NCBI GenBank assembly: GCA_964647565.1
Contig: CAZYIM010000053.1
Coordinates: forward strand, 1-13,431
Reading direction: 5' to 3'
DNA: 13,431 nucleotides
From: an uncultured Methanosarcinales archaeon
GTDB lineage: Archaea > Nanobdellota > Nanobdellia > Woesearchaeales > CAZYIM01
The first letter of the stretch is position 1. Each line of letters begins with the position of its first letter. Of this stretch, positions 3,281 to 13,156 are shown one piece after another. The position numbers and the translations under genes are program-made. Below the pieces are notes generated by a model that was given only the letters and a program-made list of their open reading frames with translations, was not told the origin of the DNA and did no database searches.

Positions 3281-6034
3281 CTACAATCTACCTTTGGTAA
3301 GCCTTTTTAGTAAATCAAAAGAGCTTTCAATCTTCTTTTTGAAATCCTTTTTTTCCTTTGCAATGTGATTCTGAGTCTTTTCAATTATTTCATCCTCACT
3401 TTCAGATTTCTTCTTTTCTTCTACGACTTCTTCTTTTTCTTCCTTTGCAGGTTTCTGTTCCTCTGCCTCTTCTACAGGCTCAATTTCTTCGTTCTCTTCT
3501 ATTTCTTCTGGTTCTTTTGTGGGTTGAGGTTTTTTAGGTAGATCCTTGGTTTCTTCTTCGTGTTTTTTCTTTTCCTCTTCAACTACTTCTTCTTCCTTCT
3601 CTTCAGGAATTATCTTTGCAGTAGCAACCACTTTATCTCCATCATTTAGTTTCATCATTCTAACTCCCTGAGTATTTCTGCCAATCTTAGATATTTCAGA
3701 GGCTTTAGTTCTTATGATGATCCCGTTTTTACTCATTATCATGATATCTTCTTCGCCATCAACAGATTTAACAGAAACTACATCGCCATTTCTTTCATTG
3801 GTAATAATGTTAATAACACCTTTGCCACCTCTTCGGATGACTCTATATTGTTCTACATCAGTCCTCTTGCCATATCCATTCTCTGTGATAGTTAATATTT
3901 TCCTGTCTGACTGTACAATGATCATACCTATGACCTTATCATCTTTCCTGAGCCGTATACCCCGGACTCCTTGGGAAGTCCGGCCCATTGAGCGAGCATC
4001 TTTTTCAATAAATCTTATAGCATAACCCTTAGTAGTTGCAAGCATGACTTCTTGATTGCCATCAGTAAGCTTTACATTGATCAGTTTATCCTTTTCAACA
4101 AGTGATAGGGCTATAATACCCCCTCTTCTGGGTTTGGAATAGGCCATTAAATTAGTCTTTTTCACGGTTCCATTTCTTGTGGCCATAATCAGGTAATGGT
4201 TGTTATCAAATTGTCTGATAGGTATGACTGCAGCAACTTTTTCGTCATGATCCATTTCAAGCAGATTTACAATGGCTTTGCCTTTGGACTGTCTGGTGCC
4301 TTCTGGGATTCTATAAACTTTCAGCCAATAAACAAGGCCTTTGTCAGAGCAAACCAACAGATAAGAGTGGGTGTTTGCAACGAACATATGCTCTACAACA
4401 TCCTCTTCTTTAGTGGTAGTTCCTATAATGCCTTTACCGCCTCTTCTCTGTACCTTATAGTTTTCAGGAGTGATTCGCTTGATATAGCCTGCGTGAGTGA
4501 TTGTTACAATCATGTCCTCTTCTTTAATCAAGTCTTCAATTAGAATTTCGTCATCGTCAGCATCTGAGATCTGGGTTTTTCTTTCGTCTCCATATTTTTC
4601 AATGATCTCTCTGAGTTCAGTTTTGATTAGTTCAAGCACTTTTTGTTCACTAGCCAATATCTCTTTCAACTCTTTGATTAGTTTCAACAGTTCTTCTTGT
4701 TCTTTTTTGATCTTTTCAGTTTCAAGTGCAGTAAGCTTCTGAAGTCGCATCTCAAGAATAGCTTCTGCCTGTATCTTTGTAAGGTTGAATTTGGATATTA
4801 GGCCGCTCTTGGCAACATCGACGGATTTAGAGGCTTTAATAAGCTTGATGACAGGATCGATGCTTTTTAATGCAATCAATAGTCCTTCAAGAATGTGAGA
4901 TCTCTGTTCGGCTTTTTTCAGCTCAAACTTAGTTCTGTTTATAATGATTTCTTTCCTATGATTAATATGGTGTGTTAGAAGATCTTTTAATCCAATTACC
5001 TTAGGTTCATTATTGACCAAAGCTAGGTTGATAATACCAAAAGTAGTCTTGAGCCTTGTGTGTTTGAACAGTTGGTTTTCAACAATCTCAGGCACTGCAT
5101 TCTTCTTGAGTTCAACAACAATGCGCATACCCTTTCTGTCGGATTCATCTCTTAAGTCTGATACTCCTTCAATTTTTTTATCCTTTACACAATCTGCAAT
5201 ATGCTCAACCAGAAGTGATTTGTTCAACTGGTAAGGTATCTCTGTGATTATAAGCTGTTTTCGAGTCTTGGTTTCTTCGAGATCAATCACACCCTTGACT
5301 GTTATCTTTCCTCTTCCTGTTTGATACGCAGATAAGATGCCTTGTTTGCCAGCTATAATACCTCCAGTTGGAAAATCAGGACCTTGGATGATTTCCATAA
5401 TTTCTCTTAACTCTATGTCTGGATTGTCGATTAATGCTATAATACCTTCTGCTATCTCAGATAAATTGTGAGGTGGGATATTAGTTGCCATACCAACTGC
5501 AATTCCTGAGCTTCCATTCACAAGAAGATTAGGTATTTTGGATGGAAGAATAAGAGGTTCTTTAAGGGAACCATCAAAGTTTTCGATGAACTCTACTGTG
5601 TCTTTATCGATATCTTGAAGAATCTGGTCAGATATTTTTGCAAGCCTGGCTTCGGTATATCTCATGGCTGCAGCATTGTCGCCGTCAATACTTCCAAAGT
5701 TACCCTGACCGTCAATTAAAGGATATCTGAGTGAAAACGATTGAGCCATTCTGACTAATGAATCATAGACAGCTGTGTCTCCGTGTGGGTGATATTTACC
5801 AAGCACCTCTCCTACAATACGCGCACATTTTTTATATGCTGAGTTATGCTTCATGCCAAGATCGTTCATGGCAAACAGAATTCTTCGATGTACAGGTTTT
5901 AGACCGTCTCTTACATCTGGGAGGGCCCTTCCGACAATAACTGACATAGCATAATCTAGGTAGGCACTCTTCATCTTCTCTTCAATAATCTGTGTTACGA
6001 TGTGATCACTTGCTGCTTCATTTGTCTCACTCAT
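3281..6034 (-). CDS. gyrA: DNA gyrase subunit A
   Basis: [22 protein letters not shown], catalytic AAMRY (Tyr126), [14 protein letters not shown], intact GyrA-box QRRGGKG (about 4430-4450), beta-pinwheel repeats, and an acidic tail. Confidence 0.98.
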
Positions 6035-6166: not shown

Positions 6167-6334
6167 TTATTCCCCTTTTTTTAGAATCTTCACAATCCGA
6201 TTAGATTTGCTCTTTGGAACTACTCTAAAACTCCTTCCGCAATATACACAAGTTTTAGTCTTTTTATGTGTGTCACCAGGATTAGGTTGATACTTCATCG
6301 TATTATTACATTTAGGACATCGTACTAGAAGCAT
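6167..6334 (-). CDS. Small basic C4 zinc-ribbon protein (55 aa)
   Basis: MLLVRCPKCNNTMKY...KTCVYCGRSF carries two CxxC motifs. ATG at 6334 is 1 nt after the scpB TAG, with GAGGA (6344-6340) upstream. The supplied 6490 start is a shadow of the scpB tail. Confidence 0.8.
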   Translation of the reverse strand: MLLVRCPKCNNTMKYQPNPGDTHKKTKTCVYCGRSFRVVPKSKSNRIVKILKKGE

Positions 6335-6335
6335 G

Positions 6336-7484
6336 CTATTCCTCTTTCTCGGGTAATTCTTTTTCAGAACTCTCAGGTTCAATCTCTTCTTCAGATAAAG
6401 GCTTCTTTTTTCCTTCGTCTTCTTCACTGCTTTCTTCATCAGCTTCCGTTTCAGGTTCTTCCTCAGCAACGTTCTCTTCAATAGCCTCATCTGTTTCTAC
6501 TTCATTCTGATTAGGTTCTTCAGATTCATCTTCTTTTGAACTTTCTGGATCGATCTGCTCTTCATTTACTGGGTTTTCTTCGGTTTGTTCACTTTCTTCG
6601 TCTGGTTCAGCGTCTGTAACTTCTTTTTGATCAGTCTCTTCACCATCTGTTTCTTCATCTCCTTCTTCGCTCTCTCTTCTTTGGAAATCAGGATCCTGGT
6701 CCCTATTATCGTTCTTGCTACTTATCTTGCTTATCTGCTCCTCAATCTTTGCAAGAAACTCCTTGCCCTTCGGATCATCTTTTACTTCTTCTATTGTCTT
6801 TTCTTTGTTTGCATCGTCAACTTCAGGTTCTTCGTCGCTCTTTTCATCCTCAGCAGGTTTTTCACTGGAGTCCTTAGCCTCGACAACATCTAAACCACCC
6901 AGTTTTTCCTTGATATCTACATCAGAGGGCTTATTTTTATCAGCTGCGCCTGCAATTACAGGGATATCTGCGATTTTTTTAGGCATCTCATCTTTTTTAA
7001 GCTCTTCAAATACCTCTTTGAGACTTCTTTGGCCAGGTACATCAAAATATTCGAAGAATCTCTTAGCTAATCTGAGGTTGAAGCTCCGTCCTTTTTTCTC
7101 TTTACTTACAAATCCCAGGTCAACTAGTTCTTTGATGTGGTCGTAAGCACCAGAGCCTCTTGTCTTGACAACGTCGGATTGGAGTAAAGGAGCTTTCCAT
7201 GCCACTATTGCAAGAGTCTCCATGACTGGCAAGCTAAGCTCCATCTCTGAGACTATTTTTGTGACCAGATTCATGTATTTCTCTTTGACATTGATCTTCC
7301 AGACATCATCGCTGTCAAGAAGCATAAGTGATGTGTTTCGGTTTTCATACTCTGATTTGAGTTCCATTAAAGCAGTTCTGATGGTCTTTTTGTCTATTTG
7401 GATAAGATTGGCTAAATCCTCTTCAGTCATGGCTTTAGCAGATGCAAACAAAAGTGCTTCTATTTGATTCTTGATTTCTTTCAT
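6336..7484 (-). CDS. scpB: SMC-Scp complex subunit ScpB with a long acidic C-terminal extension
   Basis: IEALLFAS, ELS..VMETLAIVAWKAP..QSDVVKTRG..AYDHIKELVDLGFV, and RFFEYFD match the tandem winged-helix ScpB core (about 150-160 aa), followed by over 200 aa of D/E-rich sequence. Confidence 0.93.
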   Translation of the reverse strand: MKEIKNQIEALLFASAKAMTEEDLANLIQIDKKTIRTALMELKSEYENRNTSLMLLDSDDVWKINVKEKYMNLVTKIVSEMELSLPVMETLAIVAWKAPLLQSDVVKTRGSGAYDHIKELVDLGFVSKEKKGRSFNLRLAKRFFEYFDVPGQRSLKEVFEELKKDEMPKKIADIPVIAGAADKNKPSDVDIKEKLGGLDVVEAKDSSEKPAEDEKSDEEPEVDDANKEKTIEEVKDDPKGKEFLAKIEEQISKISSKNDNRDQDPDFQRRESEEGDEETDGEETDQKEVTDAEPDEESEQTEENPVNEEQIDPESSKEDESEEPNQNEVETDEAIEENVAEEEPETEADEESSEEDEGKKKPLSEEEIEPESSEKELPEKEE

Positions 7485-8081: not shown

Positions 8082-9392
8082 CTAACACCTTTTTATTTTT
8101 ATGATAATTACTAACAGTAATATAAACATTATGAGGTAACTTAAATATTTTTTTACTTTTTCATTCTTACTTTCATAGATGATGTTGCTAGTGATTAAGG
8201 ATGCATTAACCATGTTTTGTGGGTTTTCATGTTCAACGTCTCTGGATTCTTGTTCAATTGAGCAATTACAAGAGGGTATTTGCTGTTGAGACGTGTCTTT
8301 TTGTTCACATTCTGGAATTGGCGGACAATTCTTCTCAACAACTTTGTTTTTAGGACAGACTCCTTTTTTTATACCTTCTAATCTTACCTTTTCTTTATCA
8401 CGTTCACCTAAACCCTCAACTATCAGGGTATAACTCCCATTTTCAAGCTTATGATCGCAGTTAGGTTTAGTGGAGACTGGCAAATAGAGTTCAGACTCAC
8501 TATATTTATACTCTGCATAGAACGTTATCTGTTCAGAAGCCTTTTTATTGTCTTTTTCAAGCCAAGCTTTGATTGCTTTTTTCGTGGTATCTCCCTTATA
8601 TATGAATAATTTTACCTTCAATAACTCGCCAAACTTGATTATTTTTTTATTTATTTTTTCAATCTTAATTTCAGACTCGCTCTCTTGATGTTTAATCACG
8701 ATGAATCTTTTGTTTGATGTTGTTCTATTGGCGGTATTATTACAGCCTATGAATGCTAGACGATTATTGATAACCAGGACCTTATCACTTTCTGTAATCT
8801 TTGGTGTGTAACTTTTCTGGTTTAGATTTGAAGTGTTTACAGACTTCTTTAAAACCCTACCATGAAGGTCCTCAATCCAATATTCGATTACAAAGGGAAA
8901 TGTGTTGTTGTTCAGAAGATTCTTAAACTTGATCTTTTCTTGGCTTTCATAGATTCGGTTTTCTATTGAGATATTGATTGAAACATTACAGACCACGCTG
9001 TTGGAGTCAATAACCGAAATGTTCTTGCATATCCTGTTATTTTCTGTGTAGTTGTCTTCAAGAGTATTGCGTATAATTTTTCCACAAACAAGATAATATC
9101 CTGCCTTTTCAAAAAAGATATCGCCTGTATTTGCATATGAATATTTCTTGACTGTTTTGTCAAATGTTTCTTCTTTGAAAAAATCTTTTTTTGAGATGTT
9201 ATAATAGCCGGTTATATTTGCAATAACTCCTTCAGTGTAATCTAAATTTTCAACTCTGAAAAGTCGGGTATACTCTTTACCTGTATAACATTGGTCTGGT
9301 AAAATTGATTTGATTGTGAAATCATAGGATTGGTTGGATGCAAAGCAAAAAGGAATTGTCAAAATTAATAATATCATCAATATCCATCTCAT
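8082..9392 (-). CDS. Secreted, C-terminally anchored surface glycoprotein (436 aa)
   Basis: Signal peptide MRWILMILLILTIPFCFA, beta-rich body with multiple Cys, about 14 NxS/T sequons, C-terminal TM YLSYLIMFILLLVIII followed by KIKR. TATA-like TTATTAAA at 9421-9414. Confidence 0.85.
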   Translation of the reverse strand: MRWILMILLILTIPFCFASNQSYDFTIKSILPDQCYTGKEYTRLFRVENLDYTEGVIANITGYYNISKKDFFKEETFDKTVKKYSYANTGDIFFEKAGYYLVCGKIIRNTLEDNYTENNRICKNISVIDSNSVVCNVSINISIENRIYESQEKIKFKNLLNNNTFPFVIEYWIEDLHGRVLKKSVNTSNLNQKSYTPKITESDKVLVINNRLAFIGCNNTANRTTSNKRFIVIKHQESESEIKIEKINKKIIKFGELLKVKLFIYKGDTTKKAIKAWLEKDNKKASEQITFYAEYKYSESELYLPVSTKPNCDHKLENGSYTLIVEGLGERDKEKVRLEGIKKGVCPKNKVVEKNCPPIPECEQKDTSQQQIPSCNCSIEQESRDVEHENPQNMVNASLITSNIIYESKNEKVKKYLSYLIMFILLLVIIIKIKRC

Positions 9393-9461: not shown

Positions 9462-10313
9462 TTATTTCATCACTATATAGAAGACTTCCCCGGGTATCTC
9501 AAAACTCTCAAGGTTCCATCCTTTTCTGTTCACCATCTTCAAAAACCAAGCCCTTGAGCTGATCCTGATCTTCTTTCTACCACCAATGCTTTGGGTTGGA
9601 AAGGAAACAACTATATATTTACAAGGTAAGCCATCTATCAGCTTTTCTGAGATATTCTTCTTTAAGCTTTCCAGCGAATCAAGCACCTTAAACAGAAAAC
9701 ATACATCTGCATCAAGATATTTAGTGAATTTAGTCTGGTGAAACTGGGTTAGATCAAATGTAAAGGAAATTCCCTTGATTTTTAGCTTCCTGAAAAATTC
9801 TTGAATAAATTCACAATCTTTAGCATTTAAATCCGATGCTACATATAAGGGTTGGTTAGGTAGATACGAATATGCAAAAGGATTCAATCCACAACCCAGA
9901 TCAAGTATTTTTTTGGCTTTTGGGATTAATGAGAATAGTTGATCATAGACCTCTTCATAGTATGGCATTCGCTCTTTAGTTGATTTGTGCAATAACAGCA
10001 GCTCATCAAGAAATTTCTGCTGTTTAGTCTTAAAATACTTTTCAACTAATTCCTGCTTCTTCTCATAACCTGGAAGAATAAAAATACCATATATCTCTCG
10101 AAGAATAGATCGTGTTTGCTTTAAGATGCTCTTAAATTCCTTGCTCTTTTTAAACTCTTTAAAATTATTTGAAACCTCAATTTTTTTTCTTATTTTTTTA
10201 TTAGCTTCAATGACCTTATTGACTATGTGTTCAACAAAGTCAATTTCAAGATTAACTAATTCCTTTTTGGAGATTACTTCTTTTGATATTAGTTTAGTTA
10301 GTTGCTCTGCCAT
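9462..10313 (-). CDS. SAM-dependent methyltransferase of the FmrO/Sgm/ArmA/Rmt 16S rRNA m7G1405 family (homologue; activity unproven)
   Basis: Ordered family motifs: TRSILREIYGIF, LLLHKSTKER (HxSTxER), ILDLGCGLNPF, YVASDL, DVCFLFKVLDSLE, VVSFPTQSIGG. 283 aa. Confidence 0.85.
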   Translation of the reverse strand: MAEQLTKLISKEVISKKELVNLEIDFVEHIVNKVIEANKKIRKKIEVSNNFKEFKKSKEFKSILKQTRSILREIYGIFILPGYEKKQELVEKYFKTKQQKFLDELLLLHKSTKERMPYYEEVYDQLFSLIPKAKKILDLGCGLNPFAYSYLPNQPLYVASDLNAKDCEFIQEFFRKLKIKGISFTFDLTQFHQTKFTKYLDADVCFLFKVLDSLESLKKNISEKLIDGLPCKYIVVSFPTQSIGGRKKIRISSRAWFLKMVNRKGWNLESFEIPGEVFYIVMK

Positions 10314-11344
10314 CTTAGAATTCCGGCAATACCACCCAGGCCATCCAGTTTTTTTGCGGCGTCTTCAGAGCTTATTATGTGGATTTTGCCTTTCATGCTT
10401 TCACAAAGCTTCATCAATGCATCAATCTTTTCAAAATTCTCCTCTTTTCTTGCTTTTATCATCAGGTTATCTGAAATCAAGATATCCTTTACAGCACCTT
10501 GTTCAACCTTTTCTTGACACTCTTTTATACCGTAGCATGCGCTGCTTTTGGATATGTGTTCTAAAAGTTTGTCAACCAGCTTCAGCTCTTTTGCAACCCT
10601 GTCTTTCTCAAGCACAGTTTTTAATTCAGGCCGTTTCATGACCTCATCAATATTGCTTTCATTCACATCTGAGCAGGTGCTAAGAGTTATTTTTTTCTTT
10701 ATTTCTGCAGAAAGCTCTTTGATTAGATATTCTTTCCAAAAGCCAGGGCTTGCTACAATGATATTTTCCAGCTTATATCTCTTATCATACTCTTCTATTT
10801 GTTTTGCCAACGCCTTGTAAAAATTAGCTTTCTTTTCCCCTTCTAGTCCTTTTTTTGCAACATCCCCCTTTATTTTTGTCAACACTTCGTACTCTCTATT
10901 TTTTATCATTGCAAAAATACTTTCTTCTCTGTCAAATATGATCAAAAGAATCTTGATGACCAGGTTTTTGGTAGCTTCCTCAAGCTTTTCAAGCTGGTAT
11001 GAATACCATTTTGCTTTTTCAATTTTTAGGATTGTGTTGACATCAACATTAAAGGTGTGGTGGGCGCCGTGAGCTACATCCTCGGGACCTTCCATAACTA
11101 AGCCAGATACCCTAAGAACGTCAGAGTACTTATGAAACTCAACTCTTTCAATCCTTAATTTCAAGAAAACAGATTTTCTGACCACCTTCTGGTTTTCATC
11201 AGATCCTATCTTGATCTTTCTTTCAGTCTTGGAACTAACTAAATCTCCCCCATCTATGATGTGACTCAAGTACCAGAGATCTTCTTGGTTTGTGATCTGA
11301 ATCTTGAGCTCTCCTTTTTTTATATCCTTATGAATTATCTTCAT
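10298..11344 (-). CDS. pelA: mRNA surveillance / ribosome rescue protein pelota (aPelota, Dom34 homologue)
   Basis: EDLWYLSHII..GD, LRVSG, GAHHTFNV, ASPGF, C-terminal KLDGLGGIAGILR. Three-domain eRF1-like layout without GGQ or NIKS. Confidence 0.96.
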   Translation of the reverse strand: MKIIHKDIKKGELKIQITNQEDLWYLSHIIDGGDLVSSKTERKIKIGSDENQKVVRKSVFLKLRIERVEFHKYSDVLRVSGLVMEGPEDVAHGAHHTFNVDVNTILKIEKAKWYSYQLEKLEEATKNLVIKILLIIFDREESIFAMIKNREYEVLTKIKGDVAKKGLEGEKKANFYKALAKQIEEYDKRYKLENIIVASPGFWKEYLIKELSAEIKKKITLSTCSDVNESNIDEVMKRPELKTVLEKDRVAKELKLVDKLLEHISKSSACYGIKECQEKVEQGAVKDILISDNLMIKARKEENFEKIDALMKLCESMKGKIHIISSEDAAKKLDGLGGIAGILRWQSN

Positions 11345-11366
11345 ATTAGATCGTATAGAAAGCAGG

Positions 11367-11439
11367 TTTTTAAAGTTTTTAGTTTTAGAATCTTGAAATC
11401 AGTATGTTTTTTCTCTGGTGAAACCAATAAATTTATAAA
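11367..11439. promoter_or_regulatory. Divergent TATA promoters for pelA (minus) and the pilin-like gene (plus)
   Basis: Minus TTTAAAAA at 11374-11367 (23-30 nt before ATG 11344). Plus TTTATAAA at 11432-11439 (26-33 nt before ATG 11465). Each has an A-rich BRE-like run upstream. Confidence 0.6.
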
Positions 11440-11464: not shown

Positions 11465-13156
11465 ATGCGCAAGAGGAAAGGCCAGAGCGCAGGGAATGCG
11501 GCAGTTTTAGTGTTATTGATAGCAATAATGATTATTATGTTCATACTATTTCTTCGACCAGAAGATAGAGCAGCGATTCTAGATGAACCTCCTACAGACG
11601 GTTTTGGAGGTGGTGGCACGTCAGGTGATGACGAGAATCTTACCCTACTTGAAGAACCTGTGGGTAGGTTGGACTATATTAACTTTAATAAAAAGGAACA
11701 TGAACTTCCCTCATTTCGTATATTCACCAATACCGCTGCATCTGAGTTCAGGAGACTGGATTATGTCTATGTAAAATCTGCTGCTTTTGAGAAAAAAGCT
11801 AAGAACGTAAGTTTCGAAATAAGGCGGCCGGAAAATGTACAGAACATGAAACTGTCGTTTAATGTAGCAGATGCCAATGGCGCATTGATTATTCTTCTTA
11901 ATGGGCGAGAGATATTTTATTCAGATCTTCCTGAAGGAAGTCCTGCACCAATAGAATTGCCTACTTCTTTGCTTATGAAAGATAATGTGCTGACCTTTAA
12001 GGTCTCTAGTCCCGGATGGCAGTTTTGGAGAGTGAATGTTTATTCCCTAAGAAACCTGCAGGTGCTGGGTGATGTTACAGACCTTTCTGGAAGCGAGGCA
12101 ACACAGTACTTTACAATATCTGAAATGGAGAATGCTAATATTGATACCGCAACACTGTTCTTTTATCCCGGATGTCAGATTAATGATGTTGGCAAGTTGA
12201 CCATCAAGTTGAATGGCCGACAAGTTTACTCATCTGTAGCAGACTGTGGAATCATGAATCATGTTGAGCTCGATACTTCAGACATCTTTGAAGGATCGAA
12301 TAAACTTGAATTTGAGACTATCAAAGGATCATATTTGCTAGACCAAGTGCAAGTAAAAACCGAATTGAAATCCTTGGTTTACCCAGTCTATTATTTCACA
12401 ATGGAGGATAAGTATTTTGAGGGTGATCCTGAGGAGAGAGAAGAACTTTGCGGCTTAGCAGATGATGTATGCCCTGACAATTGTAATGGTGATGAAGACA
12501 AAGATTGCTGTTATGAAGAAAGCAGGGACAACTATTGGTGTGACATGGAGACCACAAATACTAATGATAGGTGCGTTGAATATGTTGATTCACAATACTG
12601 CTTTAGATGTCTTTCGGGATATGAAGATTACAGTGGTGATGCTGCTGAGACTTGTGAAGGTCTCTGTGGCGATGATAATGATGATTTATGTCCTGTAAGC
12701 TGTTCAGGATTATATCAGGGCGGAATATATTATGATAAAGATTGCTGTTATATATCATCGAATGAGGCCTTCTTTTGGTGTGATGATGTGCCTATTGCAG
12801 GTTTAAAGAGTGTTTGTGAAGAGGGAGTAAGCTCTTACGAGTGTGACGATTGTCCTAATGGATACAGAGATGGTGACGGTAGAAGGCCAACATGTAAGAA
12901 AAAAGAGACGGATCTTGAAAAAGAAGAAGAGCTCAAGAAAAAATATGATACCCTCCTCAAGATTAAGTTTGTTGACGAGGAAATCAAGAAGCTGGATGTG
13001 ATTGTTAACGGTTTCAAGGTCTATGTTGACACCAACCGTTTGGTATTCACCCAAAACATCGATGATTATGTTCGAACAGGCACAAACTCTATTGAGCTCA
13101 TTCCAAAATCAGACAATATCAACATCGCAGAACTGAATGTTGAGATTGAGGATTAG
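11465..13156 (+). CDS. Class III signal peptide (pilin-like N-terminus) surface protein with repeated beta-sandwich domains and a Cys/Asp-rich tandem insert (563 aa)
   Basis: Start re-called at ATG 11465: MRKRKG/QSAGNAAVLVLLIAIMIIMFILFL. Three L/V-N-G...N-x-L/I-x-F/L units. 20 Cys lie between residues 329 and 477. Confidence 0.85.
   Translation: MRKRKGQSAGNAAVLVLLIAIMIIMFILFLRPEDRAAILDEPPTDGFGGGGTSGDDENLTLLEEPVGRLDYINFNKKEHELPSFRIFTNTAASEFRRLDYVYVKSAAFEKKAKNVSFEIRRPENVQNMKLSFNVADANGALIILLNGREIFYSDLPEGSPAPIELPTSLLMKDNVLTFKVSSPGWQFWRVNVYSLRNLQVLGDVTDLSGSEATQYFTISEMENANIDTATLFFYPGCQINDVGKLTIKLNGRQVYSSVADCGIMNHVELDTSDIFEGSNKLEFETIKGSYLLDQVQVKTELKSLVYPVYYFTMEDKYFEGDPEEREELCGLADDVCPDNCNGDEDKDCCYEESRDNYWCDMETTNTNDRCVEYVDSQYCFRCLSGYEDYSGDAAETCEGLCGDDNDDLCPVSCSGLYQGGIYYDKDCCYISSNEAFFWCDDVPIAGLKSVCEEGVSSYECDDCPNGYRDGDGRRPTCKKKETDLEKEEELKKKYDTLLKIKFVDEEIKKLDVIVNGFKVYVDTNRLVFTQNIDDYVRTGTNSIELIPKSDNINIAELNVEIED
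12449..12895 (+). repeat. Two tandem 10-Cys protein repeats
   Basis: Copy 1 at 12449-12655 and copy 2 at 12665-12895 share CG..DD.CP..C.G...DKDCCY...WCD...C.E.V.S..C..C..GY.D..G....TC. Confidence 0.85.

Follow-up and report, generated by a model that had tools for sequence, protein, structure and literature searches.

A pelota gene and an Arm/Rmt/Kgm-type 16S rRNA methyltransferase gene form an overlapping pair in an order of DPANN archaea

The window, that is, the whole 13,431-nucleotide stretch of archaeal DNA that was analyzed, contains two overlapping genes on its minus strand. The first is pelA, the archaeal pelota gene (10298-11344, minus strand), which encodes a protein of 348 amino acids. 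The product scores 239.5 bits against the TIGR00111 model (cut-off 177.65) over residues 1-346, which identifies it as a pelota equivalog, and it is matched by PF03463, PF03464, and PF03465, the three eRF1-like domains 1-3. The second gene (9462-10313, minus strand) encodes a 283 amino acid homolog of the Arm/Rmt/Kgm-type 16S rRNA methyltransferases, the Pfam FmrO family (PF07091). The ATG of the methyltransferase gene occupies positions 10313-10311 and the TAA of pelA occupies positions 10300-10298, and reading of the sequence bears out the preliminary description in placing the methyltransferase start inside the 3' end of pelA with an overlap of 16 nt (10298-10313, minus strand). By our own reading of the sequence, the next in-frame ATG, GTG, or TTG lies around 100 codons further in. 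Because initiation there would remove conserved N-terminal residues, no start other than the overlapping one is plausible. A Pfam search identified LigT, ribosomal protein S2, a RadB-like protein, GyrA, and ScpB among the other gene products of the window.

A TATA-like TTTAAA (11369-11374, minus strand) is found 30 nt before the pelA ATG and is the candidate promoter of the pair. It sits in a 120-nt spacer that pelA shares with a divergently oriented gene. The 60 nt that precede the methyltransferase ATG contain no TATA-like hexamer and are G+C-rich. The earlier proposal of a single promoter before pelA agrees with this pattern, and the two genes do make up a compact unit with one recognizable promoter. 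Relatives in which the two genes are linked have a similar layout. Of 56 linked loci, 46 have a TATA-like hexamer between 50 and 16 nt ahead of pelota, whereas only 2 of 58 have one ahead of the methyltransferase start. The genes lie on the same strand, stop and start codons overlap, and the second gene is preceded by no promoter element, which is the geometry of an operon. This geometry and the motif counts suggest that pelA and the methyltransferase gene are co-transcribed. A scan for sigma-70 promoters and intrinsic terminators was set aside, since such bacterial-type signals are unsuited to an archaeon, and it returned fewer sites than were found in shuffled sequences. The sequencing runs listed as containing this DNA are eight DNA metagenome runs from two studies, with no RNA run among them.

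The gene on the far side of the shared spacer (11465-13156, plus strand) encodes a membrane-anchored protein of 563 amino acids. The next gene downstream of the pair (8082-9392, minus strand) encodes a 436 amino acid protein with hydrophobic segments at its N- and C-termini. Neither product has a match in Pfam or NCBIfam. The divergent gene is a conserved neighbor of pelota in this order. A divergent open reading frame of 378-475 amino acids that lacks a Pfam match is found beside pelota in around 20 of 30 relatives, and in L100, the one relative for which homology was compared, the 395 amino acid divergent neighbor is 36% identical to the protein of the window (E 1e-68). The 8082-9392 gene, on the other hand, is outside the conserved unit, and its position is usually occupied by a gene for a TrmBL2-like regulator in relatives. 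It had been suggested that this downstream gene has a TATA element of its own. The hexamer pattern has no match before the gene, and TTATTAAA can be read in the sequence 29 to 22 nt before its ATG, which makes a separate promoter plausible on the consensus. The flanks of pelota are retained in relatives that lack the methyltransferase gene or carry it elsewhere, and of 30 pelota loci from relatives, 10 have the TrmBL2-like gene directly after pelota, with no methyltransferase gene in between.

Family, fold, and target base of the methyltransferase

The methyltransferase belongs to the G1405 family, as had been proposed. It matches PF07091 with 99.6 bits (cut-off 27) over residues 104-279, and a profile built from 13 archaeal homologs retrieves Sgm (3lcu) at 1.2e-39 and RmtC at 1.4e-34 over positions 21-282. 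It stays below the cut-offs that NCBIfam sets for the Rmt resistance family and its equivalogs, with 146.6 bits against NF000466 (cut-off 250) and 38-57 bits against the RmtB, C, D, E, F, G, and H models (cut-offs 500-550). The AlphaFold2 model has a mean pLDDT of 92.7 and a pTM of 0.87. It contains a helical N-terminal N1/N2 docking domain and a class I SAM-dependent catalytic domain, which is the two-domain fold of the family. In a Foldseek search of the PDB with this model, only structures of Sgm, RmtC, RmtF, RmtB, or ArmA occupy the first 16 ranks. Sgm comes first (3lcu, E 2.4e-20), with TM-scores of 0.78 normalized to the query and 0.85 normalized to the target.

Residues were mapped onto RmtC by profile alignment with the help of the residues named in the available part of a published study (PMC10288597). 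The archaeal enzyme has the residues that hold SAM and the flipped base in place: S111 (RmtC S107), D161 (D160), K209 (the universal K204), and F78 (the aromatic Y60). K209 and S111 are invariant in archaeal alignments A1 and A3, while F78 is invariant in A1 and conserved in at least 90% of A3. Among the docking residues, K39 (RmtC K20) and R68 (R50) are kept and I249 is at the place of the hydrophobic M245. Three positions are changed with respect to RmtC, namely H54 to R72, Y21 to K40, and K236 to Q241. The arginine at the H54 position is invariant among the 31 pelota-linked sequences of A3, and H54 and Y21 are among the residues called near-universal in the accessible text (PMC10288597). 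Therefore, contact with h45/h44, and conceivably the target, may differ in the archaeal enzyme. As judged from its sequence and predicted structure, the methyltransferase retains the fold and the catalytic residues of m7G1405 enzymes.

The same assembly holds a full-length 16S rRNA gene on contig C15. In E. coli numbering, this rRNA has G1405 paired with C1496 at the top of helix 44 and has A1408, and the two strands of the helix read GCACACACUGCCCGUCAAA and AAGUCGUCACAAGG. Every genuine 16S match of relatives has G1405, with or without a methyltransferase gene. Covariation of G1405 was considered as evidence for the target and was discarded. The base is present irrespective of the enzyme and hence gives no covariation signal.

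Recurrence of the pair and replacement of pelota by other partners

An even sample of 401 genomes from the same order and a phylum sample of 401 genomes were searched for FmrO. It was found in 157 of the order genomes (and not found in the remaining 244) and in 229 of the phylum sample. Of the 146 FmrO loci examined in the order, eight lack enough sequence on the upstream side to be judged. Among the 138 evaluable loci, pelota precedes the methyltransferase gene on the same strand in 61 (49 directly and 12 with a gap) and is absent from that place in 77. Linkage to pelota occurs in 16 of the 44 families that bear FmrO, 14 of them uniformly, and in 24 of the best 80 FmrO loci in a search of genome contigs. 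Because it recurs in 61 of 138 loci of the order and in 24 of these best 80, the pairing exceeds chance. Across 71 unique linked species loci, the genes are directly adjacent in 58 and overlap in 46 of the 58, most commonly by 13 or 16 nt; L083 and L200, which have no start-codon candidate, were left out of the overlap count. The overlap measures 7-19 nt in most linked pairs. Pelota is always upstream on the same strand, and never downstream or on the opposite strand, at each linked locus checked.

The two proteins also diverge together. Their Spearman correlation is 0.64, a value reached in 0 of 999 permutations, and the median identities of the two proteins are about 39% and 35%. The preliminary description had held that confinement of the adjacency to this genome or its closest relatives would refute a functional unit, and had called for a count of FmrO genes beside pelota and for a comparison of the two trees. 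The adjacency is widespread instead, with 61 linked loci in 16 families, and the two proteins co-diverge. The pairing of pelA with the methyltransferase gene is genuine and old in this order of DPANN archaea, and the two genes probably form an operon. In a methyltransferase tree rooted on a single Chloroflexia sequence (L091), the pelota-linked sequences form a basal grade. The linkage label needs at least 11 changes on this tree (shuffled mean 21.4), and the starred branches force only three. The tree was built by a quick method, 33 of its 87 inner branches are unresolved, and the root row is its longest branch; for these reasons no arrangement is claimed as ancestral. Structure prediction of a complex of pelota and the methyltransferase (alignments A2 and A3) gave no support for one and is uninformative on binding either way.

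Outside this order, the methyltransferase gene keeps different company. Among FmrO loci from other orders of the class, 0 of 38 have pelota as a neighbor, while 17 of the 38 have the gene for arCOG04150, a universal archaeal KH protein, upstream on the same strand. The KH protein scores 196 bits against TIGR03665 and matches the Pfam domains KH_PNO1_2nd and KH_KRR1_2nd. These domain names suggest that arCOG04150 may be the Dim2/Pno1 ortholog. Genes tightly coupled upstream of the methyltransferase gene include those for fibrillarin (three of four loci of family f108), RtcA (two of four loci of family f14), and CysRS (three of five f139 loci fetched), as well as for Elp3-like proteins, a THUMP methyltransferase, and S7. 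RsmB/F, Rpr2, and S6e are further neighbors in relatives. An ABCE1-like gene is divergent in two of the four f14 loci; such a gene is the divergent neighbor at L003 and L177. Many neighbors are unrelated to ribosomes, such as integrase, polysaccharide synthase, MFS transporter, and metallophosphoesterase genes, and the neighbors in 90, 89, and 93 loci of relatives are mostly housekeeping genes. In the Chloroflexia metagenome-assembled genome that supplied the root (L091), the FmrO gene is preceded by a TGT gene and followed by another FmrO gene. The partners found outside the order thus make ribosome and RNA machinery, rather than pelota specifically, the conserved theme. Pelota is a replaceable partner of the methyltransferase gene.

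Possible meanings of the linkage

From the gene order, overlap, conservation, fold, catalytic residues, and target base described above, we infer the target of the enzyme and the meaning of its linkage to pelota. The gene probably encodes a native, lineage-optional methyltransferase of small-subunit rRNA and shares its transcripts with genes for translation and ribosome biogenesis, and its link to pelota would then reflect shared expression and no dedicated device. Most likely, the pelA promoter drives transcription of the methyltransferase gene as well, and the overlap couples its translation to the termination of pelota synthesis. Going by its family membership, the enzyme would most likely dock on the free, essentially mature 30S subunit, flip G1405 out of helix 44, and methylate its N7. 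m7G1405 would be an intrinsic but lineage-optional rRNA modification, and the same gene would ride behind other translation or ribosome-biogenesis genes in sister lineages. Room is left for a specific functional tie. The overlap is kept across around 60% protein divergence, and only two partners, pelota and the arCOG04150 KH protein, are abundant, a pattern that is more pointed than 'any translation gene'.

One such tie, which we consider unlikely, would be a role in late maturation or licensing of the small subunit. The methyltransferase would act at the last 30S step, either on particles bearing the KH factor or on those that pelota and ABCE1 release from a trial 70S-like complex, and m7G1405 would finish or proofread the decoding center. 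To our knowledge, an archaeal trial-translation cycle has yet to be demonstrated, and this counts against the idea. The two dominant partners in the class, pelota in this order and the KH protein in 17 of 38 loci of other orders, speak for it, as do the neighboring genes for fibrillarin, RsmB/F, RtcA, Rpr2, S6e, and S7 and the divergent ABCE1-like gene of f14. Yeast offers a precedent, as far as the available text of the source goes: Pno1 stays on the pre-40S particle until 3'-end cleavage, after which Dom34 and Rli1 separate 80S-like particles (PMC9960125). According to another study, enzymes of the family depend on a mature-like 30S subunit, on which they dock at h24, h27, h44, and h45 (PMC10288597). 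However, the gene was not found in 244 of the 401 order genomes and hence is not an essential maturation step, many of its neighbors are non-ribosomal, and the orthology of arCOG04150 to Dim2/Pno1 draws on Pfam domain names. The preliminary description favored a different tie, in which pelota, aEF1A, and ABCE1 split ribosomes that have stalled. The methyltransferase would then act on the released small subunits, modifying or protecting them as a mark of quality control or antibiotic stress. Conservation of the operon, the overlap in most pairs, the co-divergence of the two proteins, and an ABCE1-like gene as the divergent neighbor at two loci would all suit such a module. Splitting would also create the substrate, since the family acts only on free 30S and not on 70S in the part of the study available (PMC10288597). 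Newly made 30S subunits are already a substrate, though, and other genes replace pelota as the partner in other lineages. Pelota is moreover universal, being present in 41 of 41 genomes searched, while the methyltransferase is found in 13 of the same 41. We know of no removal of G1405 methylation, so the mark could hardly flag a particular rescue event. Taken together, this makes a rescue mark very improbable.

Resistance to drugs is the familiar role of the family, and the archaeal enzyme could protect the ribosome from 4,6-disubstituted aminoglycosides made by neighbors, as Sgm and Kgm do in producers and Rmt and ArmA do in pathogens. Family membership, fold, and catalytic residues are as expected for this role, the 16S rRNA of the organism has both G1405 and A1408, and the distribution is patchy (157 of 401 order genomes). 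We nevertheless regard it as quite improbable. Nothing mobile or biosynthetic is found at the locus, which instead holds housekeeping genes (S2, RadB-like, GyrA, ScpB); the gene is inherited with pelota within families; and the enzyme scores below the NCBIfam cut-off for resistance enzymes. In addition, a 2026 preprint argues that CPR bacteria, being fermentative and lacking an electron-transport chain, are poor at taking up aminoglycosides (10.64898/2026.07.13.738296), and by extrapolation the same may hold here. It is also conceivable, if decidedly unlikely, that the archaeal clade uses the same fold to methylate another guanine or another RNA than G1405. The change of H54 to an arginine that is invariant in the linked clade would fit, as would lysine for Y21 and glutamine for K236. 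H54 of RmtC is described as essential, near-universal, and in contact with G1516 of h45 in the accessible text (PMC10288597), and the orthodox function of the first archaeal ortholog was left open in the available part of the paper that reported it (Husain et al., 2010; PMC2896518). Against a new substrate, the residues that position SAM and the flipped base (K209, F78, S111, D161) are all kept, the N-terminal docking domain is present and Sgm-like in the model, and G1405 is found here and in all genuine 16S matches of relatives.

A bolder version of the maturation idea is a long shot. In it, m7G1405 of Nanoarchaeia would be wired into the last quality-control step of the small subunit, on 30S particles that are handled by the Pno1-like KH factor or freed by pelota and ABCE1 from a trial 70S-like complex. 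If true, it would explain why the gene is welded to exactly pelota and KH genes in sister lineages, and it would be genomic evidence that translation-like proofreading of new small subunits predates eukaryotes. If shared expression alone lies behind the pattern, the pair is an ordinary conserved operon.

Comparison with known systems

Enzymes of the Arm/Rmt/Kgm type are known almost only as determinants of aminoglycoside resistance. In this large class of archaea, members of the family seem to belong to the old equipment of the ribosome and to be inherited vertically, which bears on the origin of the resistance genes and on the role of m7G1405 in a ribosome without drug. A search of the literature outside subscription journals and supplements found no description of a pairing of pelota with FmrO or m7G1405, in agreement with the view that the pair is undescribed. 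The archaeal enzyme itself is not new and has been in print since 2010. Among the matches listed for archaeal G1405 methyltransferases, only two papers were relevant. The available text of one calls NEQ545 of Nanoarchaeum equitans 'the first archaeal ortholog' of the Arm family and reports that its catalytic motifs are conserved and its N-terminal domain has diverged (Husain et al., 2010; PMC2896518). The other, on the genome of the Nst1 nanoarchaeon, notes an Arm-family homolog, and a term search of its available text returned no mention of pelota (PMC3655853).

The enzyme of the window shares its Pfam family and two-domain fold with the producer enzymes Sgm and Kgm and the acquired enzymes ArmA and RmtA-H (3lcu, 6pqb, 6pi9, 3frh, 3fzg, 8ghu), and it has the HxSTxER, DxxCGxNP, FK, and SFPxK motifs in common with them. 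It differs from Sgm, ArmA, and Rmt in that its gene is chromosomal, lies among housekeeping genes and not among mobile or biosynthetic ones, and is passed on vertically together with pelota. Relative to RmtC, it has arginine for His54, lysine for Tyr21, and glutamine for Lys236, and it scores below the NCBIfam Rmt cut-off. NEQ545 likewise belongs to the family and comes from an archaeon of the Nanoarchaeota type, and its catalytic motifs are conserved (PMC2896518). The N-terminal domain of NEQ545 is described there as diverged, whereas the enzyme of the window aligns over nearly its full length, N-terminal domain included, with Sgm and RmtC. The Chloroflexia locus combines FmrO with the gene for an RNA-modification enzyme, TGT; it is bacterial, has other partners and no pelota, and its sequence is distant from the archaeal clade. 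The control of late pre-40S particles in eukaryotes, by Pno1/Dim2, Nob1, and Rio1 and then by Dom34 and Rli1 splitting, has homologous or similar players in pelota (Dom34) and the arCOG04150 protein with its Pno1/Krr1-type KH domains. In yeast, Dom34 and Pno1 both act on late small-subunit precursors, according to the accessible part of the source (PMC9960125). One order pairs the methyltransferase with pelota and others pair it with a KH protein of the Pno1 kind, and this gene order suggests that archaeal small-subunit maturation may use players of the eukaryotic pre-40S checkpoint. The likeness is an analogy drawn from gene order, and the eukaryotic pathway involves no m7G1405 counterpart.

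The gene pair and its surroundings

The pelA gene (10298-11344, minus strand) encodes a 348-aa pelota with three eRF1-like domains, whose TIGR00111 score of 239.5 bits exceeds the cut-off of 177.65. It is followed by an FmrO-family methyltransferase gene (9462-10313, minus strand; 283 aa; Pfam PF07091 at 99.6 bits, cut-off 27), the only FmrO gene copy in the whole assembly. The sequence places the pelA stop codon at 10300-10298 and the methyltransferase ATG at 10313-10311, both on the minus strand, so that the ATG lies inside the pelA 3' end, 16 nt ahead of the end of the stop codon. The 16-nt overlap reported in the preliminary description is present, and it is not an annotation choice because the window offers no alternative in-frame methyltransferase start for about 100 codons. 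The lone promoter proposed ahead of pelA also agrees with the sequence: TTTAAA stands 30 nt upstream of the pelA ATG, and no TATA-like hexamer occurs in the G+C-rich 60 nt 5' of the methyltransferase ATG. A search of the main texts of open-access papers found no published account of the pelota-FmrO pairing, consistent with the claim that it is undescribed.

The block of genes around pelota is conserved whether or not the methyltransferase is part of it. A TrmBL2-like gene lies directly 3' of pelota in 10 of 30 pelota loci of relatives, at 66-86% identity, and four of these ten genomes have the methyltransferase elsewhere. In linked loci, those with pelota upstream of the FmrO gene on the same strand, the methyltransferase sits between pelota and the TrmBL2-like gene, which is found downstream on the same strand in 39/61. 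On the other side of pelota, a divergent ORF of 378-475 aa without a Pfam match precedes it in about 20 of 30 relatives. The window has a divergent membrane-anchored protein of unassigned family here (11465-13156, plus strand; 563 aa; no Pfam or NCBIfam match), which is homologous to the one neighbor compared, that of locus L100 (36% identity, E 1e-68). Its extra length comes from a Cys-rich insertion of roughly 165 residues.

The TrmBL2-like HTH protein (about 268 aa) scores 75 bits against NCBIfam TrmBL2, far under the cut-off, and its conservation across families of the order exceeds that of pelota itself. Its gene comes just after pelota or pelota plus methyltransferase at loci L096, L097, L100, L103, L104, L106, L107, L111, L116, and L119 and at most linked loci (e.g., L014:4956-5762). 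The window lacks it at the position after the methyltransferase.

Elsewhere in the window, the ScpB gene (6336-7484, minus strand) has a long acidic C-terminal tail whose frame overlaps a zinc-ribbon ORF (6167-6490, minus strand; 107 aa; weak DUF7836 match) by 155 nt within 6167-7484, and one of these two calls may be overlong. The gyrase A subunit of this archaeon (3281-6034, minus strand) ends in an acidic, Lys/Glu-rich tail of about 100 residues. The low-complexity Leu/Lys/Arg-rich ORFs at 1-313 resemble a comparable charged tail read in the wrong frame. The assembly comprises 2.68 Mb in 86 contigs (completeness 87%, contamination 1.85%), whereas the 40 order-level relatives range over 0.6-2.1 Mb; either the genome is exceptionally large for this group or the bin contains more than one population.

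Spread of the linkage and change of partner

Linkage was measured in three samples, in which gene calls in relatives came from ORF and HMM heuristics and direct adjacency was defined as an envelope gap of ≤120 nt. Sample 1 comprised 40 relatives, one per family of the order. With the window's genome included, 13 of 41 genomes carry an FmrO gene, and in four of the 13 pelota lies upstream on the same strand (three overlapping, one with a 103-aa ORF in between). Sample 2, the best 80 of at least 597 loci on one-genome-per-species contigs and hence biased to query-like sequences, has pelota upstream on the same strand at 24 loci. Sample 3 drew 401 genomes evenly from the order, and 157 of them have the FmrO gene (a tally that counts four unpublished genomes, unused further). 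Among the matches listed, 146 loci (13 earlier and 133 further) were scanned with HMMs, leaving out seven matches and the four unpublished genomes. Pelota is linked at 61 of these loci, adjoining the FmrO gene directly at 49 and set apart by a gap at 12; it is not in that place at 77, and the upstream DNA is too short in eight. By family, linkage occurs in 16 of 44 that carry the FmrO gene, in 14 of these at every evaluable locus; the other 28 have no linked locus, and for one of them, f92, the single locus has too short upstream DNA to evaluate. The preliminary description, which proposed a ribosome rescue-and-mark module, would have lost its ground had the adjacency been confined to close relatives; with 16 families linked, it spreads beyond them.

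All samples pooled contain 71 distinct linked loci, 58 of them directly adjacent. Overlaps occur in 46/58, most commonly of 13 or 16 nt; L083 and L200, which have no start-codon candidate, were dropped from this count. Across the 58 pairs, median identities are about 39% for pelota and 35% for the methyltransferase, and the pairwise distances of the two proteins correlate (Spearman 0.64; 0/999 permutations as high). The methyltransferase tree was a quick build and is poorly rooted. A TATA-like hexamer precedes pelota in 46/56 loci versus 2/58 for the methyltransferase. By these results the unit is old, has been inherited whole, and is arranged so that pelota's promoter would drive it.

Different lineages pair the FmrO gene with different partners. 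The FmrO family is found in 229/401 genomes of a phylum sample (counting three unpublished genomes, unused further). For other orders of the class, 41 "same class" places were listed, and removing three at contig starts left 38 loci, none of which has pelota beside the FmrO gene. A universal archaeal KH protein lies upstream on the same strand in 17/38, within 60 nt in 13, and in all loci of three families. Its TIGR03665 (arCOG04150) score is 196 bits, and in Pfam it hits KH_PNO1_2nd and KH_KRR1_2nd. Other tightly coupled upstream genes encode fibrillarin, RtcA, CysRS, an Elp3-like radical-SAM protein, a THUMP methyltransferase, S7, PolD, and an aspartyl/lysyl-type tRNA synthetase. Downstream neighbors include S6e, Rpr2, RsmB/F, and an Rrp6/RNase D-like exonuclease, and many FmrO-gene neighbors have no RNA connection. 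The methyltransferase gene is dispensable: no FmrO gene turned up in 244 of the 401 genomes sampled from the order, although pelota was detected in all 41 genomes searched for it. The independence of the pelota block from the FmrO gene, the changing partner, and this dispensability count against a pelota-specific mechanism.

Alternative-partner loci are L258-L295 (other orders of the class), L022, L026, L027, L031, L032, L034, L036, and L040. The coupling to the KH gene resembles the pelota arrangement and often overlaps. Within the window's order, the FmrO gene is coupled to fibrillarin in family f108 and to CysRS in f139. At L091, in a Chloroflexia MAG, two FmrO genes stand in tandem, the first of them preceded by a TGT-family gene.

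The methyltransferase as a family member

NEQ545 of Nanoarchaeum equitans was described as the first Arm-family orthologue from archaea, its function left open (Husain et al., 2010; PMC2896518), and the homologue appears among the Nanoarchaeota signature genes of the Nst1 genome paper (PMC3655853). A profile of 13 archaeal homologues matched Sgm (3lcu) at 1.2e-39 and, almost full length, RmtC, RmtF, ArmA, and RmtB. The AlphaFold2 model of the window protein (pLDDT 92.7) retrieved m7G1405 methyltransferases at ranks 1-16 in the PDB, with Sgm on top (TM-scores 0.78 and 0.85). The archaeal profile alignment was mapped onto residues named in the RmtC-30S paper (PMC10288597). Kept are K209, which is the universal Lys, F78, the aromatic residue for stacking on the flipped base, SAM contacts S111 and D161, and two docking residues, K39 and R68; the RmtC Met245 position holds hydrophobic I249. 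Three positions are changed: Tyr21 to K40, Lys236 to Q241, and His54 to R72, the last invariant in 31 aligned pelota-linked methyltransferases. The NCBIfam Rmt equivalog score is 146.6 bits, below the cut-off of 250. By profile, fold, and residues, the protein belongs evolutionarily and structurally to the Arm/Rmt/Kgm family. The assembly's 16S rRNA has C1496, A1408, and G1405, the canonical target, which is available to the putative methyltransferase.

Position 1400 of 16S rRNA adjoins the decoding centre and is near-universally C. The window's genome has U there, CACACACUGCCCGUCA (L124:1623-1636, minus strand, on contig C15, outside the window). The exact U1400 motif occurs in 23/401 genomes of the order, all 401 counted whether or not a 16S is assembled. 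The FmrO gene is present in 16 of these 23 versus 157/401 overall, the genomes not being independent, and most of the 16 belong to families without pelota linkage.

A probable native small-subunit enzyme and its possible roles

The methyltransferase is most likely a native, optional small-subunit rRNA enzyme with no promoter of its own. Its gene would have settled, lineage by lineage, 3' of constitutively expressed translation and ribosome-biogenesis genes. In the window's order the host would be pelota, with the junction fixed as an overlap that would give co-transcription and probably termination-reinitiation coupling. By analogy with the family, as described in PMC10288597, the enzyme would dock on free 30S and methylate N7 of G1405. 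Given the His54-to-Arg change, the enzyme may act on a target other than G1405. The enzyme may confer drug resistance, although its inherited, housekeeping gene context speaks against this.

A native enzyme of this kind may also finish or license new 30S subunits; marking after rescue, as proposed in the preliminary description, is a less likely cousin of this reading. It is striking that the abundant partners are pelota and a Pno1-like KH protein. The yeast counterparts of both act on late pre-40S particles, and finishing or licensing is therefore the most interesting candidate reading. According to a review (PMC9960125), yeast Pno1 remains until 3'-end cleavage, after which Dom34 and Rli1 split the 80S-like complex.
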